Shown here one piece after another: positions 21,255 through 37,178 of a stretch of 45,062 nt of DNA. This DNA comes from Veterinaerplatzvirus T145P1. Numbering within the stretch: the stretch's first letter is position 1; every line of letters starts with the position of its first letter. A model generated the notes under the pieces. That model was not told the origin of the DNA and searched no databases. It saw only the letters and a list, made by a program, of their open reading frames with translations. The translations under genes were made by a program, and so were the position numbers. Location: the sequence record OZ035765.1. One strand, written 5' to 3'.

Positions 21255-21452
21255 ATGAAGGCTTTTATAGACATAAATAAGTCACCATACAACGACGAGA
21301 AAGATCCTGAGGTAAGATTAAGGGTAAAATTTAGCACAGGAAGGGAGATAAATATAACAACTACATGTTCTGATTTAGCGAAAGCACTTATGGGTTGTAG
21401 TGAAGTTCCTGTTACTGTTTCAACGAGAAATGTTGAGGTGAAAATAAAATGA
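21255..21452 (+). CDS. hypothetical protein
   Basis: 65 aa, RBS AAGGAA. Confidence 0.4.
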   Translation: MKAFIDINKSPYNDEKDPEVRLRVKFSTGREINITTTCSDLAKALMGCSEVPVTVSTRNVEVKIK

Positions 21453-22414
21453 CTTTCAGGGTTTACACACGAGAGGAGCTAAGCAACGAGGATTACCACT
21501 CAGAGCAAGATCATATCTCCGGCAGCTCACTTGTCGAGATTATCCAAGGATCACCAGCTAAGTGGAAGTTCAAGCAACGCAATAGAGATAGCAAGGCGCT
21601 TAAGTTTGGTACCTTATCTCACTGCATGATTCTCGAACAAGATGTATTCGACAAGGAGTATTTGCGAGCAGTAGACCTTGACGCGATTGAAGGCTTAATT
21701 ACAAGCCAGGCAGGATTAGCAGCAGCACTTAAAAAAGTCGGTGTGGCTGGAACATCAGGGAAGGGCTATAGCGAGCTTGTAGAGATGATGTATCGTTCTG
21801 GCGAGGACTGGCCCATTAAGTGGCTAATTGATCAGCTGGAAAGCGCTCAAGCGCTTGTGGAGGGTAAGGAGCTAGTTAGCGCAGCAGACTATGACAAAGT
21901 TGTGGCTATGCGTGAGGTTCTTTGCAATATTCCGGCATACAATGCAATCGTGAATAGTGAGACGGCGCAGAAAGAGTTATCAATCTTCGGTGAGATTCTC
22001 GGCGTCGGCGTTAAGATTCGAATTGACCATGTTGATGTTGTTGATGGCGTCGTTCGGATCACGGATTATAAAACGACAGCCGACGCAAGCCCTGAAGGAT
22101 TTGGTAAGTCTGCATTTAATCACGGATACCTTGCAAAAATGGCGCTTCAGCGCGATCTGTTTGTGAAAGCATTTAACGAGAAGCGCAAGGTTGTTGTAGG
22201 ATTGCTGGCGCAGGAGAAGGTGGAGCCATACCTACCAATGCTGTACACACTAACCGACGAACAGCTGCGAATTGGTCGCCTTCAGTATCTTGAGGCACTT
22301 GCAACTTACAAGAAGTGCAAGGAGCTTGATATTTGGCCTGGATATTCTAACGGCATTACAGAGCAAGAGCTATTGGTTCCTGATTGGGCCATTAAACAAT
22401 ATAGAGAGATATAA
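21449..22414 (+). CDS. PD-(D/E)XK recombination exonuclease (putative)
   Basis: IDHVD...ITDYKT motif (D...D/E-x-K); located with Erf and SSB. Confidence 0.65.
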   Translation: MTFRVYTREELSNEDYHSEQDHISGSSLVEIIQGSPAKWKFKQRNRDSKALKFGTLSHCMILEQDVFDKEYLRAVDLDAIEGLITSQAGLAAALKKVGVAGTSGKGYSELVEMMYRSGEDWPIKWLIDQLESAQALVEGKELVSAADYDKVVAMREVLCNIPAYNAIVNSETAQKELSIFGEILGVGVKIRIDHVDVVDGVVRITDYKTTADASPEGFGKSAFNHGYLAKMALQRDLFVKAFNEKRKVVVGLLAQEKVEPYLPMLYTLTDEQLRIGRLQYLEALATYKKCKELDIWPGYSNGITEQELLVPDWAIKQYREI

Positions 22415-22954: not shown

Positions 22955-23605
22955 ATGAAAATTTCAGAATCATGCAAGTCAATTTTAAACGCTCTACACA
23001 CCGCCAAATCGCTATTTGCGAAGGCTGAAAAATCAAAACAGAACTCACACCTCAAGAACAGATACAGCACCCTTGATGATGTTCTTGCCGCTGTAGAACC
23101 AGGCCTTGAAGAATGTGGTCTTGTAATGTTTCAGAGCGTAATTGATAGCGAAGCTACTGGACTGCTGAAGGTTGAAACGAAGTTGTTCCATGCAGAGTCA
23201 GGCGAGTGGGTTAGCTTCTTAATGATTGTCCCTATCAGCAAGAATGATGCTCAAGGTTACGGATCTGCGCTTACATATGCTCGACGCTACGGAATTACAG
23301 CAGCTTTAGGTCTTAGTCAGGCAGATGACGATGGTAATCTCGCAGCTAAAGGCGTTAAAGACTTTAAACGTGAGCTTGAGAAGTGTAATAGTCTTGATGA
23401 GCTACGTAACGTATGGAAAGAGGCTAAGCAATCACTAGACGCTGCGGGATGGAAGGTTTTTGAACCTCACATTATCGAGCGCAAGGCAGAGATTGAAGCA
23501 AATGCAGCAACTGGCTTTAACCCTGCAACACCAAAGAAAGTTGCAGAAAAAAGTAGTACTGAAGAAAAGACTGAAGTAGAATCACAACAAATCGACACAT
23601 TCTAA
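22955..23605 (+). CDS. erf: Erf-family single-strand annealing protein
   Basis: NRYSTLDDVLAAV and GSALTYARRYG motifs. Confidence 0.85.
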   Translation: MKISESCKSILNALHTAKSLFAKAEKSKQNSHLKNRYSTLDDVLAAVEPGLEECGLVMFQSVIDSEATGLLKVETKLFHAESGEWVSFLMIVPISKNDAQGYGSALTYARRYGITAALGLSQADDDGNLAAKGVKDFKRELEKCNSLDELRNVWKEAKQSLDAAGWKVFEPHIIERKAEIEANAATGFNPATPKKVAEKSSTEEKTEVESQQIDTF

Positions 23606-23646: not shown

Positions 23647-24072
23647 ATGCACGTAATTACTGGTCAGATTCGACGCGCTCCATTCACTAAAGAAGGTCAT
23701 AATGCTAATGGTACCTGGAAAATGTTTGCGGTTGATTTGAGTGAGCGATACAAAGATAAAGATGGTCAGACTCAGTATAGTAACTATCGCGCAGTCTTCT
23801 TCGCGAAAGAGTCAATGTTAGATTGGTATAATGAAGCTTTTCAAGAGGGTAAAGTTGTTAGCGTTAGCGCAGAGACTCTTTCTGTTGATGTTAGAGATAA
23901 AGATGGCAAGACTTACGTTACTGTCAACATGAACAATCCTAGACTTGAGTTTAGTCAGCGCGGTGAAGGTGGCGTGCAGCAGCAACCTAGACAACAGCAA
24001 CAAGCACAACAGCAACAACAGAATCAACAGCCAAAACAGCAAAAGCAATTCGAAGATGATATTCCTTTCTAA
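23647..24072 (+). CDS. ssb: single-stranded DNA-binding protein
   Basis: OB-fold-like N-terminus, Gln-rich linker, C-terminal acidic tail ...FEDDIPF. Confidence 0.85.
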   Translation: MHVITGQIRRAPFTKEGHNANGTWKMFAVDLSERYKDKDGQTQYSNYRAVFFAKESMLDWYNEAFQEGKVVSVSAETLSVDVRDKDGKTYVTVNMNNPRLEFSQRGEGGVQQQPRQQQQAQQQQQNQQPKQQKQFEDDIPF

Positions 24073-26771: not shown

Positions 26772-27698
26772 TTAGTCTAGCAATTCGCTTGCCTTGTATA
26801 TTCGCTTTCTTATGCCTGACTTGAAAAAATTATCATCATTTGGCATTACCACATCAAGATCGCGATCGTCAGCAACGGCGAGTAAATCAAAATCGTTGCG
26901 AGTACAAGCGATGCGTAACTTGTATTTTCTAAGCGAGTAAGCAACCATTTCCATGTTGTAGCTGGAGTAGCAAACAAGCACGCAGCGGTTGCCAGTAGCA
27001 ATGTGAACACGATAGCCGTCAATGAGATTATCGACCAGATAAGCGTACTCATCATCCTTAAAGGAACCAATAACAGCAACAGACTGGCGAGTATAATCTT
27101 TTGCAGCATAACTAACATCTCCCTCTTCATTGATAAACATTACATTACACATTTCTTCTGATATACCGTCATTATAAGCCATAAAACACGGTACTGCGTG
27201 TATCAGTTCGCCTGATTTTGTCCTGCCAACATCAAAACCAAACTCGCTATAGATGCCCTCGTATGTGCTGAGCGGAGTTGATTCCACTCTTTCCGTCCTT
27301 TCCATTATCTCTAAGCATCTTTCGTGGTCAATCTGAGCGCCCATTTTGTATGGTGATGTTCTTGAAGCTCTTTTGTTTGCTTTTGATATAACCTCTACTG
27401 GAACGAGATTCAGCCAATCACCAAGCGTATCTATTGTTTCACTATAACTCATTCCAGAACACTTCATTACCCAACCAACACCAGAATCATTTCCACACTG
27501 GTTGCATATTGCTGCGCCATTTCCCTTTTCTTGACCTAACTCATCAGTGAAGCGAAACCTATCCTTGCCAAAGCAGTAAGGGCACGGACCATGTTTCTTG
27601 CTGAGATTCTCCTTTGTCCATCCAAGATGCGATGAGTAGAACTCACTCCACATCCCTTTCATCTTGGCTATCACTTCGTTCTTATCATGTTGACTCAT
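26772..27698 (-). CDS. DNA primase (zinc-finger type, putative)
   Basis: Start moved to ATG 27698 (GGAGGT RBS); CPYC...CNQC zinc ribbon; acidic DxD-type motifs. Confidence 0.6.
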   Translation of the reverse strand: MSQHDKNEVIAKMKGMWSEFYSSHLGWTKENLSKKHGPCPYCFGKDRFRFTDELGQEKGNGAAICNQCGNDSGVGWVMKCSGMSYSETIDTLGDWLNLVPVEVISKANKRASRTSPYKMGAQIDHERCLEIMERTERVESTPLSTYEGIYSEFGFDVGRTKSGELIHAVPCFMAYNDGISEEMCNVMFINEEGDVSYAAKDYTRQSVAVIGSFKDDEYAYLVDNLIDGYRVHIATGNRCVLVCYSSYNMEMVAYSLRKYKLRIACTRNDFDLLAVADDRDLDVVMPNDDNFFKSGIRKRIYKASELLD

Positions 27699-27753
27699 AA
27701 TTACCTCCATAAACAATAAAGGCACTATACATAATGCAAAGCGCCATTGTTTA

Positions 27754-28233: not shown

Positions 28234-28246
28234 TTCATTACCTCAA

Positions 28247-28289
28247 TAGCATTTTTTGTTAAAAGTCATCCTGATTTGATGGTATTATT
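28247..28289 (+). promoter_or_regulatory. conserved promoter/operator module (helicase) overlapping HTH gene 5'UTR
   Basis: TAGCATTTTTTGTTA, 22 bp, TATTAT-like; same palindrome abuts the RBS of the divergent HTH gene. Confidence 0.45.
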
Positions 28290-28315
28290 GTACTCAATTA
28301 AACGCTACAAGACAA
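28287..28315 (-). promoter_or_regulatory. sigma70-like promoter for HTH regulator gene
   Basis: Minus strand TTGTCT, 17-bp spacer, TACAAT upstream of the 27754-28233 gene. Confidence 0.5.
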
Positions 28316-28334
28316 TTTTTATAGGAATTTAGAT

Positions 28335-30329
28335 ATGTTGCCTATCGAGAAGCTGGTTGCAAATTTCGATAAAGAAAGAATCAAACAGATTCAGAGAGAT
28401 TATCAGTTTGGCGAGATAACCCCTTACGAATTCCAGTGCGTAACATTTGATGCAATCGGGAAGGCTATTGGTAAGTATGAAGCGCCATTTATCGCTGACC
28501 TTTCAGTATCTGCGGGTAAGACAATCATTCTTGCCATGATTGGTAAGCGCATGGAGCAGCTTGGGCTTCCATATATGGTTCTCTCTCGCCAGTCAGAGAT
28601 TATCAGCCAGAACTCAGAAGAGCTTCGTAATTTCGGCATCCGTAATAGCGTCTATTGCGCTGGCCTTAACGTCAAATCAGTTTACTACCCAACTATAGTG
28701 GCCAGTGAGGGTACGGCAGCCAACGGCTTGTTTAAGGGGCTTGGTGACTATGTTCCGGCAGTTATCGCTATAGATGAGTGTCACATGGTCGATCACATGG
28801 ATATCGTGGAGGCTGAAGAGAATGAAGAAACATTTGAGCAAATGAGCACAAAGAAAGGCGATATGGTTTTTAAGGATGGCGTAAACACAGGATTGCTTGG
28901 TACTGGTCGTGCTCAGTACACGCTAATTATCACCGAGATGAAACGTCGTTGTCGTGAGAAGTACGGGCGTGAGCTTCGTATATTCGGTCTTACTGGCAGC
29001 CCGTATCGTAACAACGATCATATCGTCGTTAGCAACCCAAACATCCGTGGATTCTGGCGCAAAACAGTGATTCAGGTGCCAACAAATTATCTGGTTGATT
29101 TGGGCTTCGTGGTTCCTACTGTTTATGGTGAAGTTGGTGACCTGGGTTATGACCTTAGTGAGTTTGCGCCAGACGGAAGCGATGGCGTTAAAGACTTCAG
29201 CAAGAAAGAAATGGATGCAATGGCTGCAAAGATTCACGACAACCAATCAATGACCCAAAAGATAATGGGTTTTGTTGTGAAAATACTCGAGACTCGTAAC
29301 GCTGCATTGGTAACATGCGCTGGCAAACTCCATTGTGATGAGGCTGCTGCGGCACTACCAGATGGATACCCTTACGCCATCATCACAGACTCTACGGGAG
29401 AGAGGAAGCGCAGGGAGATTCTGGCTGATTGCCAGACAGGTAAGTACAAAATAATATTCCAGATTGGTTGTCTTACTACGGGCGTAAACCAGCCGCTGTG
29501 GGATACTAGCGTCATACTACGCAAGATTGGCAGCCTAACGCTTATGATTCAGCTTCTTGGTAGGGGGATGCGCAAACTTAAGAGATCTCATATTGATGCT
29601 GGTTTTCATAAAGAAGATCACCTTGTGCTGGATTTTGCTGGCGCACTTGATGATATGGCTGAGCTTTACTTTGACCCAATTATTGAAGAGATTCAGGCTG
29701 AGAAGTTTAAATCCTCAAGAAAAGGTGGCGATGAGGTTCGTCAGTGTCCGCAATGTGGATATGAAAATTCCCCATTCGCTCGTCGCTGTAGCAATAAGAT
29801 TGATGGCGTTAGATGCGATCACTTCTTTCAGTTCACAATTTGCGAAGACATTACCGACGCGCAAACTAAATCGGTAATTAAAAAGGGTTGTGGCGCTCGC
29901 AATGACATAGCAGCAAAGGTTTGCAGGGAATGCGGCGAGATGCTTAAAGACCCAAATGCTAACCTGACTGGCAAAATGTATCGTCGTGGTGATTACCTTC
30001 GTGTTTATGATTTTCAAGTTGGGTTAAGTAAGAATCAGACAGGCATTGTAGTTAAGTACAATATAATGGCTCATAACGGAGAGAGATTTAACGCTTGGGA
30101 GTTCTTTAATCCAGAATCAGACCATCGAGTTTGCAGTGTGCTCTGGAAGAACTTTTGCTTAGCTCATATTGATAATCGCACGGAAGCGGCACGAATTGGC
30201 AGGCTTAAAAATGCCAGAATGATTATGACTAACGTAGATAAGTTCCGTGCGCCAGTTCAGGTTACGCATCGCCGGAATGCAAAAGGAAAGGACGTGATAG
30301 CGTTTAAGAATTTTGGAGAATTATTATGA
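28335..30329 (+). CDS. SF2 DEAD/DEAH-box helicase
   Basis: Walker A VSAGKT, DECH box (AIDECHMV), C-terminal Cys-rich zinc-ribbon-like region. Confidence 0.8.
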   Translation: MLPIEKLVANFDKERIKQIQRDYQFGEITPYEFQCVTFDAIGKAIGKYEAPFIADLSVSAGKTIILAMIGKRMEQLGLPYMVLSRQSEIISQNSEELRNFGIRNSVYCAGLNVKSVYYPTIVASEGTAANGLFKGLGDYVPAVIAIDECHMVDHMDIVEAEENEETFEQMSTKKGDMVFKDGVNTGLLGTGRAQYTLIITEMKRRCREKYGRELRIFGLTGSPYRNNDHIVVSNPNIRGFWRKTVIQVPTNYLVDLGFVVPTVYGEVGDLGYDLSEFAPDGSDGVKDFSKKEMDAMAAKIHDNQSMTQKIMGFVVKILETRNAALVTCAGKLHCDEAAAALPDGYPYAIITDSTGERKRREILADCQTGKYKIIFQIGCLTTGVNQPLWDTSVILRKIGSLTLMIQLLGRGMRKLKRSHIDAGFHKEDHLVLDFAGALDDMAELYFDPIIEEIQAEKFKSSRKGGDEVRQCPQCGYENSPFARRCSNKIDGVRCDHFFQFTICEDITDAQTKSVIKKGCGARNDIAAKVCRECGEMLKDPNANLTGKMYRRGDYLRVYDFQVGLSKNQTGIVVKYNIMAHNGERFNAWEFFNPESDHRVCSVLWKNFCLAHIDNRTEAARIGRLKNARMIMTNVDKFRAPVQVTHRRNAKGKDVIAFKNFGELL

Positions 30330-30745
30330 AGATTACAGATAAAGAAGATTACATTGAGTTTTACCAGGGTCCGGTTAAGTCATGCCCTAAAGAGGATGAC
30401 GAACAAATCTTTTGCTCTGATTGGGTTAAGTATAACTACCCAGATATGGTATTTTTCCATTGCGTGAATGAGGGAAAGAAAACCATTGGTCAAGCAAGAA
30501 AAGACCAGGCTAAGGGGCTTCTAAAAGGCGTATCAGACTGTATGTTTCTTATTCCTGAATCACTTCGAGGTAAGTATCCTTTCGGAGCTATAGAGCTAAA
30601 GAGGGCTGGCAAAACTCAAGCAAGTCCAGTCAGCGAAGAACAGAAAGCATTCCTGAAAAGTGTAATGGAATCAGGCGGTTTCTCGGCAGTCGCCTACGGA
30701 CGTGAGGGTTTTCTTGCAGCATTCAAAGAAATGATTTCAAAATAG
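30326..30745 (+). CDS. VRR-NUC-like nuclease (putative)
   Basis: 139 aa; D...E-L-K type motif (DCMFLIP...AIELKR); ATGA overlap with helicase. Confidence 0.5.
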   Translation: MKITDKEDYIEFYQGPVKSCPKEDDEQIFCSDWVKYNYPDMVFFHCVNEGKKTIGQARKDQAKGLLKGVSDCMFLIPESLRGKYPFGAIELKRAGKTQASPVSEEQKAFLKSVMESGGFSAVAYGREGFLAAFKEMISK

Positions 30746-30785
30746 CACGAATTGCTAAAGACGATTTTAAAAGATGGGGTATAGT
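30743..30785 (+). promoter_or_regulatory. conserved promoter/operator module
   Basis: TAGCACGAATTGCTA, 22 bp, TATAGT, leader TACTCCATCGAAACGA. Confidence 0.5.
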
Positions 30786-32562: not shown

Positions 32563-33693
32563 ATGGCAACCGCAAAAATCACCAACGAACAATTGCGCGA
32601 AGAGTTAGCAAATGGCATGACCAACAAGGCAATCGCAGAGAAGTACGGAATGAACATTCGCAACGTTGAATTGCGTCGCAGTAAATTAGCTAAACAAGGC
32701 GAAGGGCATGGTCGCGATGTAAGCAACTTAATCCCTCAGGGCTATGCAGTTAAAGGCGTCTCCAGCTTAATTGGTGCTGATGGCGAGATTAAGCAACAGT
32801 GGGTTAAATCAGATATCGACAAGGAGAAGCAAGAAGAGATGATGCTTCAGGCAATTCAGGCCCTAACTGATGAGTTGCCGCGTGAGAAAGCTAAAGCTTT
32901 AAGGGTTGGTTTATGGGAAGATACTTTAAGCCTTTACCCCGTGTTCGACCTCCACATTGGAGCAATGGCTCATCATGCTGAGTGTGGTGAGAACTATAGT
33001 ACTGAAATCGCTGAGAGAGTTCTTAATGATTACTTTGATTACGCGGTTGCAAAGGCCCCCAACTCCAAGAAAGCTGTATTGCTGATTGGGGGTGACTTCC
33101 TTCACTCTGACGGAATGGAAGCGGTAACACCAACCAGTCGTCATGTTCTTGATCAAGATAGCCGTTATCACAAACTTGTTTACGTAGCAGTGCGATCGAC
33201 ACGTCGAGCAATTAGCCGCATGCTTGATAAGCACGCCGAGGTTGAGGTTCAGATTATTCCAGGTAACCACGATCTCTCAGGTATGATTTGGCTTCGTGCT
33301 GCAATGGCAGCTTTCTATATGGATGAGCCTCGAGTTAATGTTGATGCGTCCCCCGCTGCGCTTCACGTAACGCAATTTGGGAAGACGCTGCTTGGTTACT
33401 GCCATGGGCACGAACTCAAAAAGCCTGATACCCGACTATCAGCACTGGCTCGTGACCATCGCAAAGCATTTGGTGAATCAGAGTATGTTTACACCCATTC
33501 AGGCCACTATCACCATCAAACTATTACGGAAGGAAATCTGGGTATTGATGAATCACACGGCCAGCTTGGAGCGAAAGATGCGTACAGTGCTAACGGAGGT
33601 TATCGCTCTTACCGACAGGCTTCGGTGATAATTTATAGTCCTGAGTTTGGTGAGATTGGACGATTTACTTGCCGCCCGGAAATGTTTAGTTAA
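32563..33693 (+). CDS. calcineurin-like metallophosphoesterase with N-terminal HTH
   Basis: Motifs D-L-H, GGDFLHSDG, GNHD, GHxH (SGHYHH); N-terminal MTNKAIAEKYGMNIRNV HTH-like segment. Confidence 0.6.
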   Translation: MATAKITNEQLREELANGMTNKAIAEKYGMNIRNVELRRSKLAKQGEGHGRDVSNLIPQGYAVKGVSSLIGADGEIKQQWVKSDIDKEKQEEMMLQAIQALTDELPREKAKALRVGLWEDTLSLYPVFDLHIGAMAHHAECGENYSTEIAERVLNDYFDYAVAKAPNSKKAVLLIGGDFLHSDGMEAVTPTSRHVLDQDSRYHKLVYVAVRSTRRAISRMLDKHAEVEVQIIPGNHDLSGMIWLRAAMAAFYMDEPRVNVDASPAALHVTQFGKTLLGYCHGHELKKPDTRLSALARDHRKAFGESEYVYTHSGHYHHQTITEGNLGIDESHGQLGAKDAYSANGGYRSYRQASVIIYSPEFGEIGRFTCRPEMFS

Positions 33694-35594: not shown

Positions 35595-37178
35595 TCACCC
35601 CAGCAATCTCGGATTAATGTAAACTTTATCACCAATCAGGCACGTATAGTTTTTCTCATCAAGCATTGGCAGTAAGTGATCTTTAATCTTCGTCATCACT
35701 CCAGCCTGAGCCTCGAACGGCTTAACCTTTCGCGCCGCTTCATACAATGAGCGAATGCCAACAACACCCTTACCGTTTTTACCCTGCTTGATCAGGATAT
35801 CAATCAGCTTATTCATCTCGGCATTGTCGCCAGCGTGACCAGCCGCGTTGGCAGATGACAAATAAGTCTTGCTAAGCTCCTGGAACATGATTACAGCTTC
35901 TTGCATGGTATCAAGCTCAATCTCTCTGGATTTCTGTGGACTCCCACCGCTAGGGTTGAACCAGTTGCGCACTGTGTGAAGAACAGCAGCAATCCTGATA
36001 GCCTGCTTATCGAATTTACCCAGCGCGCCGCGCAACATTGTGTGGGAATACTTACCGCCGTCCGCAAGGTGCGGCTCCATTTCCTGACGTGCCCGGTTTA
36101 GATATTTCATCGCTGAGTTGCTAACCGTCAACTTTACTTCTTGCTCATTCATGATTTCGTGAACCAGGCGGAAGTAGTTAGCCTTAAGCTCACCATCAAT
36201 TGGCTCGTAAGTTGAGTTGCCATTCTCATCGACGAATACACGCTCGCCAAGGAATGATTTTTCACGCACAAGTAGAAAACGTTCCGACACACCAATACCA
36301 CGAGCACCAGCATTCATGATTGCGTTTATTGTCTCATCTTGCGCAATTACAGAGATGCATCCCATAGCGACGAAGCTCATGTTGTTTTCTGCGTTCGCAC
36401 GCGCAATGGACACGTTACCAGCATCCCACGCCTTGAGTACGAGCTCGCTGTTCGTTTTCTTTGAGCCATCACCATAGGTCATACCTAGCAGAGAGTTCAC
36501 GCTCGTTGCTTCATCAGAGATAACCGCGAAGTTGCCCTGGCGGTTGTTTATTCGCGCAAGACCTTCAGGTGTCGTATCTGATACTGGAAATACGATATCG
36601 CACATCTTTTCCAGCTTCTCCTCTAAATCCTCTTTCTCCTCAAAGAGAGACGCCATCTCTGATGGTGACTTTTCCTGCTTCATCTCTTTGGATAATGCAG
36701 ACAGCTTTGCCATAATCTTTTTACGCTCACGCTTTCGCACTTCATTAAGCCGCTCAGTCTCAGCAATCATTGGCGCAATAGAAAGCGAGTTAATTGCTGA
36801 TTTACCTGTGGATGGTGGCTGACTGGTTACTACGTATAGAGAGGTCGGTTGCTGGGTTCCGTGATACTCTACTGTAAAACGTCCCAGCATGGCGGCAGAA
36901 ATACACCCCAGAAAGTGCATATAAGCTGAAGACTCTGGAAATTGAACAGAACGGGCAATATTGGCTGACAGCTTACCAACAACATCAATGTCATTACCGA
37001 GTGAGATTACGGGATACTTGTCATTAGCCGCATCAATCTCAACTGGCGCTTTCCAGAATGATTGAGACTGACGATATCCATTGGCATTAATAGCGACGCG
37101 CAGGGGTGGGAGGTTGTCTGCGGCAGCAATTGCCATAACCTGTTCAACAGATAGCTTATCTTCGTTGAAATCAAACAT
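35595..37178 (-). CDS. P-loop NTPase of unknown function
   Basis: Walker A-like SQPPSTGKS and Walker B-like FAVISDEA separated by a charged coiled-coil insertion; own promoter module upstream. Confidence 0.6.
   Translation of the reverse strand: MFDFNEDKLSVEQVMAIAAADNLPPLRVAINANGYRQSQSFWKAPVEIDAANDKYPVISLGNDIDVVGKLSANIARSVQFPESSAYMHFLGCISAAMLGRFTVEYHGTQQPTSLYVVTSQPPSTGKSAINSLSIAPMIAETERLNEVRKRERKKIMAKLSALSKEMKQEKSPSEMASLFEEKEDLEEKLEKMCDIVFPVSDTTPEGLARINNRQGNFAVISDEATSVNSLLGMTYGDGSKKTNSELVLKAWDAGNVSIARANAENNMSFVAMGCISVIAQDETINAIMNAGARGIGVSERFLLVREKSFLGERVFVDENGNSTYEPIDGELKANYFRLVHEIMNEQEVKLTVSNSAMKYLNRARQEMEPHLADGGKYSHTMLRGALGKFDKQAIRIAAVLHTVRNWFNPSGGSPQKSREIELDTMQEAVIMFQELSKTYLSSANAAGHAGDNAEMNKLIDILIKQGKNGKGVVGIRSLYEAARKVKPFEAQAGVMTKIKDHLLPMLDEKNYTCLIGDKVYINPRLLG

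Follow-up and report, generated by a model that had tools for sequence, protein, structure and literature searches.

Two adjacent genes in the Veterinaerplatzvirus T145P1 sequence record OZ035765.1, whose whole stretch of 45,062 nucleotides (nt) is referred to here as the window, encode a RadD-like superfamily 2 (SF2) helicase/translocase and, directly after it, a standalone VRR-NUC nuclease (Table 1), and it seems, on balance, somewhat probable that they represent a conserved unit of the early replication/recombination module whose two products act on shared branched DNA intermediates. Veterinaerplatzvirus belongs to the subfamily Braunvirinae of Drexlerviridae, the phage being a T1-like siphophage, and the gene pair itself is an ordinary conserved one that is already known and annotated in T1-like coliphages. 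Both open reading frames (ORFs) start with ATG in the ORF list, and, given the window composition (GC content of 0.443), a frame would remain open by chance for 139 codons with a probability of ~2e-4 per frame and for 664 codons with a probability of ~3e-18. A search across 50,697 phage records returned 1508 records with homologs of the nuclease and 1702 with homologs of the helicase, and both ORFs are thus real genes.

The smaller protein is a standalone PD-(D/E)xK nuclease of the VRR-NUC family, of the psNUC type, with its catalytic set intact. Its residues 49-126 match the Pfam VRR-NUC family (PF08774) with 33.0 bits against a gathering cutoff of 23.8 (E of 6.7e-8), and a Foldseek search with its predicted fold placed 4qbl at the top with a probability of 1.0, the closest folds being those of the three solved standalone VRR-NUCs, followed by FAN1, Hjc and RecU. 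A preliminary description of this DNA had called the protein VRR-NUC-like from a D...E-L-K motif (D71 together with E90-L91-K92, the latter encoded at 30593-30601), a call borne out by the Pfam match above the cutoff and by the psNUC-like predicted fold, and the conserved catalytic residues, whose loss upon alignment it had named as the finding that would refute the call, are all present: an alignment of 28 homologs, the most divergent of them 48% identical, has E23, D71, E90, K92 and Q106 without exception. Within the wider family, sampled by 38 representatives (20-55% identity), E23, D71, K92, H45 and G68 remain invariant, with E90, Q106, N48, E49 and G64 being at least 90% conserved. E23, D71 and E90-x-K92 also align in the homologs from Salmonella phage Akira, Aeromonas phage pIS4-A, Vibrio phage PS34B.2 and Brucella phage Tb, as well as in remoter phage lineages, while D71, E90-x-K92 and Q106 align by HMMER with their counterparts in psNUC (4QBL), the glutamine falling in psNUC “PAQKE”; in the solved structures, this conserved glutamine (Q57 in stNUC, Q102 in psNUC) hydrogen-bonds the catalytic lysine (PMC4103454).

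The standalone VRR-NUCs psNUC, stNUC and saNUC are dimers cleaving four-way junctions symmetrically (Pennell et al. 2014, PMC4103454), and psNUC has an extension between strands 1 and 2 (PMC4103454). In the window nuclease, the linker between these strands (residues 46-71) comprises 26 residues, including a short helix at 54-62, is modelled with lower confidence and aligns through the psNUC extension, and so may be compatible with a dimer as far as can be judged from the alignment. A helical insertion at this place, of the type seen in FAN1, would prevent dimerisation. A family-specific H45-x-x-N48-E49 motif (30458-30472), which is conserved across the wide nuclease family as are G64, K67 and G68 of the same linker, falls outside the canonical PD-(D/E)xK set. 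Pfam VRR_NUC misses the nuclease homologs of Akira, pIS4-A, PS34B.2 and Tb at E < 0.01, their homology being supported by BLASTP (E from 1e-13 to 1e-16) and by the conserved residues, and even the crystallised stNUC of phage SETP3 (L090, 27422-27709) scores under the Pfam cutoff (22.5 vs 23.8 bits); therefore, Pfam alone under-calls the VRR-NUC family, which is under-annotated in phage genomes.

The larger protein belongs to the RadD (YejH) family of SF2 motors and has predicted tandem zinc elements followed by a C-terminal domain, so that the SF2 helicase call made in the preliminary description was correct and can be stated more precisely. Motifs I, II, III and VI (Table 1) and eight cysteines are invariant in 24 helicase homologs, the motifs aligning to those of RadD. 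Pfam returns just Helicase_C and weak zinc-ribbon matches, and the protein is assigned to PHROG 16 (“DNA helicase”). Its top sequence match in the PDB is E. coli RadD (E of 2.7e-30), to which it is 25% identical over 546 residues by BLASTP (E of 1e-40), and the NCBIfam model heli_RadD_YejH (NF053632) matches residues 193-653 (E of 7.8e-51). The score, however, is 173 bits versus the equivalog cutoff of 720, which makes the phage helicase a relative within the RadD family and not a RadD ortholog. A Foldseek search with the AlphaFold (AF2) model, which has a predicted local distance difference test (pLDDT) score of 81.8, returned RadD for all of the best 8 matches (E from 1e-33 to 1e-26, ~665-671 columns), the next family being XPB (1e-12); as both a sequence and a fold match, RadD exceeds the next family by ~20 orders of magnitude.

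The eight-cysteine segment is the counterpart of ZF1 and ZF2, the tandem zinc elements of RadD, and aligns with RadD CPACG...RRC...C...CNAENDIAARRCREC; the RadD zinc fingers, with two zinc sites, have been described in PMC9049331. When compared to RadD, the cysteine pattern lacks a counterpart of C434 and contains an extra invariant cysteine, C485, one ligand position being different, and the two zinc sites of the phage helicase may, judging by the alignment, be wired differently. As for the C-terminal domain, the BLASTP alignment to RadD stops at residue 548 and the global TM-score to RadD is 0.45-0.53, whereas the NCBIfam RadD alignment extends to residue 653 (profile position 564 of 573) and residues 552-650 are modelled with confidence by AF2. 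An acidic insertion of ~35-55 residues between motifs II and III (residues ~154-200, ~28796-28940), located within RecA domain 1 and absent from E. coli RadD, is highly variable in length among the homologs (alignment columns ~165-230) and is confidently predicted to form helices plus a beta-hairpin. A RadD-like helicase ORF of an uncultivated phage (L093, 1314-4109) is 931 aa long and carries an insertion of ~900 nt, which separates the parts matching residues 179 and 214 of the window helicase and could be an intein or a homing element.

Table 1. Features of the helicase/nuclease gene pair, followed by the neighbouring features of the window (window coordinates).
Feature	Position	Strand	Details
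RadD-like SF2 helicase/translocase gene	28335..30329	+	664 aa
Motif I, AGKT	28512-28523	+	residues 60-63
Motif II, DECH	28773-28784	+	residues 147-150
Motif III, TGS		+	residues 220-222
Motif VI, QLLGRGMR		+	residues 406-413
Predicted zinc-binding segment of the helicase	29745..29933	+	C471, C474, C485, C494, C503, C519, C530, C533
C-terminal domain of the helicase	29976..30326	+	residues ~548-664, predicted beta-sheet plus helices
Shine-Dalgarno-like GGAG	30315..30318	+	7 nt before the nuclease ATG, within the helicase coding sequence
ATGA stop/start overlap	30326..30329	+	nuclease ATG 30326-28, helicase TGA 30327-29
Standalone VRR-NUC (PD-(D/E)xK) nuclease gene	30326..30745	+	139 aa
Catalytic/signature residues of the nuclease	30392-94; 30536-38; 30593-95; 30599-601; 30641-43	+	E23; D71; E90; K92; Q106
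Divergent intergenic region	28234..28334	.	between a Cro-like regulator gene (-) and the helicase gene (+)
Primase gene	26772..27725	-	Pfam PF08273, PHROG 510; “DNA primase” in MN840485; divergent to the helicase
RecE-like PD-(D/E)xK exonuclease	21449-22414	+	Pfam DUF3799
Erf-family single-strand annealing protein	22955-23605	+	Pfam ERF
SSB, a protein binding single-stranded DNA	23647-24072	+
DUF3987 P-loop helicase-like protein	35595..37178	-	527 aa; PF13148, E 5.6e-42; PHROG 2373 “DNA helicase”

The two genes meet at GGAGAATTATTATGAAG, and both ORFs, as well as the ATGA shared by the helicase stop and the nuclease start, lie precisely where the preliminary description had placed them. Related loci were surveyed for this junction in a set of 80 having upstream sequence, which are mostly IMG/VR contigs and phylogenetically redundant. 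A helicase homolog is the upstream gene in 80/80 (three of them with an extra ORF between), and the junction measures from -11 to +2 nt in 76/80: -4 nt in 41 loci, +2 in 14, -1 in 12, +1 in 6 and -11 in 3, the remainder being one probable start-codon picking artefact and the 3 loci with an inserted ORF. Comparison of the junction strings showed that GGAG or GAGG occurs at a similar spacing in most of the related loci. Translational coupling of the nuclease to the helicase would fit both the ATGA overlap and this conserved tight junction. The inserted ORFs were found in L007 (3526-3999), L008 (469-nt gap) and L010 (3765-4004); that of L007 is a 157-aa HNH homing endonuclease (PF13392), and that of L010, 79 aa long, has no family match.

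The pairing is also retained outside Drexlerviridae, in phages Akira, pIS4-A, PS34B.2 (where a 67-aa ORF separates the two genes) and Tb (where they overlap by 4 nt). Their helicases are 41% (Akira), 40% (pIS4-A), 38% (PS34B.2) and 24% (Tb) identical to the window helicase, and RadD is the best NCBIfam match for all four; the Tb protein, which is 35% identical to E. coli RadD, attains 420 bits in the RadD model, still below the cutoff of 720. In three uncultivated phages, the nuclease is preceded, with one ORF in between, by a helicase of 27-28% identity. Among the searched phage records, genus counts of helicase and nuclease homologs almost match (e.g., 483 vs 482 for Klebsiella, 40 vs 41 for Brucella and 39 vs 39 for Shigella). 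A profile search of a 5.8-billion-protein set with the nuclease alignment gave only Drexlerviridae among the top 120 and thus no distant context, scans for loci with three single nuclease-family proteins found nothing while a fourth gave three loci, and scanning genome contigs with the helicase alignment yielded three loci, each of them T1-like phage sequence within a bacterial assembly, and so no information on the neighbourhoods of bacterial RadD genes. An 81% identical helicase is encoded on a 46.7-kb contig of a Nitratidesulfovibrio liaohensis assembly (L082, NZ_VSMK01000220.1), and twenty “Campylobacter phage” records have T1-like genes; both give the impression of contamination with coliphage DNA or of mislabelling.

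That the pair resembles a branch-processing helicase-nuclease unit for recombination-dependent replication, as had been proposed in the preliminary description, is plausible, and the proposal is a reasonable one because standalone VRR-NUCs are Holliday-junction resolvases (PMC4103454), RadD is reported in abstracts to act on recombination intermediates, and the genome has RecE-like exonuclease, Erf and SSB genes. The abstracts on RadD tie it to branched postreplication/recombination intermediates and to RecA strand exchange (PMC7470958, PMC7145654, PMC8887467), ascribe to it binding of the SSB C-terminus and acceleration of RecA strand exchange (PMC10238739, PMC8887467), and describe it as having no stand-alone helicase activity. 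Both genes would be read from one transcript, and ribosomes ending the helicase would re-initiate at the overlapping ATG, thereby tying nuclease synthesis to helicase synthesis. The RecE-like exonuclease, Erf and SSB would drive recombination-dependent concatemer formation, from which branches would arise; the RadD-like motor would remodel or branch-migrate these intermediates, and a nuclease dimer would cut Holliday junctions and other branched DNA within the same intermediates, leaving concatemers that could be replicated and linear DNA that could be packaged by the headful mechanism, so that the pair would function like RuvAB-RuvC or RecG-RusA. T1 and TLS have no DNA polymerase gene and package headfuls from concatemers (PMC11447400). 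A stricter version of the proposal, in which T1-like and allied siphophages would possess a dedicated branch-migration/resolution machine of two proteins, the RadD-family motor and the VRR-NUC dimer, is doubtful; were it true, the pairing would indicate that the substrates of the RadD family are four-way or three-way junctions passed to a resolvase.

A minor, still appreciable likelihood attaches to the two proteins having independent jobs, with the helicase starting or driving replication together with the divergently encoded primase, the VRR-NUC protein being a free-standing debranching or repair nuclease in the manner of T7 endonuclease I, T4 endonuclease VII or lambda Rap, and the adjacency and overlap reflecting only compact operon packing inherited with the whole module. 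Several observations weigh against the functional-unit interpretation, and some of them also favour independent jobs. Several remote nuclease relatives (those of Bacteroides phage BS-TP4, Salinibacter phage 13_1, Nitratiruptor phage NrS-4, Alteromonas phage P24 and Methylophilaceae phage P19250A) lack a RadD-like helicase in the 5 kb to either side, and the nuclease relative of Nonlabens phage P12024L is accompanied only by a weakly related SF2 helicase, at a distance of three ORFs; the nuclease, therefore, needs no such partner, and the adjacency may be inherited synteny. The crystallised stNUC lies near an SNF2-type helicase in SETP3 and not near a RadD-like one (the SETP3 helicase being annotated as intein-containing), and E. 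coli radD, unlike the phage helicase gene, has no nuclease neighbour, being located between rsuA and rplY. No helicase-nuclease fusion was found among the 150 best nuclease-family representatives, all of which are standalone proteins of 52-183 aa, and thus no fusion backs a physical complex. Mobile HNH genes between the helicase and the nuclease are tolerated without apparent harm.

The junction itself is open to the same objection, as 4-nt overlaps are seen, from the coordinates, in ~12 of the 78 adjacent gene pairs of phage AugustePiccard, which makes the ATGA overlap a general trait of compact genomes rather than a distinctive one, and the internal GGAG Shine-Dalgarno would also permit the nuclease to be initiated independently, without coupling. 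Lineages that keep the pair mostly keep its primase, exonuclease, annealing-protein and SSB neighbours as well, so that inherited synteny accounts for part of the conservation. Literature searches returned no biochemical or genetic data for a T1-family member of either protein, and the re-annotation of TLS treats the primase Gp56 and the helicase Gp58 as replication initiators, with Gp59 being separate (PMC11447400). Against independent jobs, on the other hand, stand the RadD family itself, which, going by its abstracts, is not a replicative helicase family; the presence of a separate DUF3987 helicase candidate in the genome; and phage Tb, in which the pair, still overlapping by 4 nt, has other annotated neighbours, the 8.4-kb stretch examined containing no annotated primase, RecE-like exonuclease, Erf or SSB.

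It is quite improbable that the nuclease is an offensive or takeover enzyme degrading host or competing DNA, with the helicase supplying the substrate, even though T1 degrades the DNA of its host. VRR-Nuc domains can, in the outline given by PMC9635880, be toxic structure-specific nucleases in type VI secretion system (T6SS) effectors. The window nuclease, however, is a standalone VRR-NUC in minimal form with the junction-specific psNUC as its nearest match, has neither a targeting nor a toxin-delivery domain, and sits in a replication/recombination module. A defence, superinfection-exclusion or counter-defence system is scarcely credible. Helicase plus nuclease pairs are common in defence systems and the helicase gives weak PADLOC matches to mREase_IV and PbeA, yet these matches (29 and 25 bits) cover the generic Helicase_C region only, the pair occupies the same replication-module position in all 80 surveyed loci, unlike a variable accessory island, and this reading was rejected since the nuclease has no PADLOC match.

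Over 3.4 kb, the region of the pair shares 99.5% identity with another Veterinaerplatzvirus T145P1 record (OZ035793), at nearly matching coordinates, its identity to Escherichia phage 2725-N35 being 99%. The recombination genes between 21449 and 24072 are assigned to PHROG 412, 155 and 44, and the DUF3987 protein, labelled “putative helicase” in AugustePiccard, is, by its sequence matches, an alternative candidate for the replicative helicase. No RecA homologue was found among the window ORFs scanned or in the AugustePiccard annotation, and no further junction resolvase is annotated in that related genome. The divergent intergenic region contains promoter-like consensus matches at 28259-28288 (+) and 28315-28287 (-), and is a weak candidate for an early-promoter region, such matches being at chance level (12 found vs 11.3 by shuffle); counts in the promoter and terminator scan were likewise at chance level, with no terminator-like site 3' of the nuclease gene (30746-30773).

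A calcineurin-like (Metallophos) “DNA repair exonuclease” gene is located 1.8 kb downstream of the nuclease gene (32563-33693), and such an exonuclease adjoins the nuclease homolog downstream in Alteromonas phage P24 (L099, 5400-6500), so it may be a second recurrent neighbour. GATC is strongly under-represented in the window (positions 1-45062), with 61 sites vs ~170 expected from base composition, five being located in the helicase gene and 0 in the nuclease gene; T1 has a dam gene after its nuclease gene, and none is seen at that place in the window.

Existing annotations of the pair vary. In 2725-N35, the large gene is a “DNA helicase” and the small one a “hypothetical protein”, whereas GenBank labels in T1-like phages include “ATP-dependent helicase” with “VRR-NUC domain-containing protein”, “radD: putative DNA helicase” with “putative endonuclease”, and also “Holliday junction branch migration helicase”. 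The VRR-NUC domain is listed in the papers on 2019SD1, Sfin-1 and KMI8, and the 2024 re-annotation of TLS gives the name “Holiday junction recombinase” to Gp59, whose gene follows that of the helicase (PMC11447400). The Braunvirinae gene following the helicase (including those of MN840485 and AugustePiccard), which is still a “hypothetical protein”, can safely be annotated as a VRR-NUC family nuclease and putative junction resolvase, and the helicase as RadD-like, which has little significance beyond correct annotation. Somewhat more broadly interesting is the retention, in several phage lineages, of a RadD-family motor beside a junction-resolvase-type nuclease, and the phage pair could serve as a simple system for asking what RadD-like proteins do on branched DNA.

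Among the known systems, orthologous pairs in the same order are found in T1 (ST22/ST21), TLS (Gp58/Gp59), Sfin-1 (CDS58/CDS57) and other Drexlerviridae, the T1 and Sfin-1 pairs having the same 4-nt overlap as that of the window, and the window proteins are ~50% identical to their Tunavirinae versions. A rho-independent terminator, not seen in the window, is annotated in T1 immediately after the nuclease gene (L091, 8974-9002), which makes the pair a two-gene unit in that phage. The window nuclease is 13-24% identical to psNUC (4QBL), stNUC of Salmonella phage SETP3 (4QBN) and saNUC (4QBO), from which it differs by an extra N-terminal beta-hairpin and by the invariant H-x-x-N-E motif. The phage helicase shares with E. 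coli RadD (6JDE, 7R7J) the order of its elements, i.e., an SF2 core with DExH, a zinc-cysteine cluster and, probably, a C-terminal domain, as well as a ...NDIAA+.CR.C...L.DPN signature in the cysteine cluster; as a difference, the phage has an Erf-type annealing protein.

The archaeal helicase-nuclease machine XPB-Bax1 (PMC7293015), in which Bax1 is a multidomain DUF790 protein cutting bubble and flap substrates in nucleotide excision repair, was also considered as a homolog and rejected, the resemblance being remote and structural only. RuvAB-RuvC and RecG-RusA have no homology to the phage pair and would share with it, by analogy, the same proposed logic of an ATP-driven motor on branched DNA combined with a dimeric junction-cutting nuclease. 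RuvB belongs to the AAA+ proteins, the fold of RuvC is that of RNase H and RusA has one of its own.

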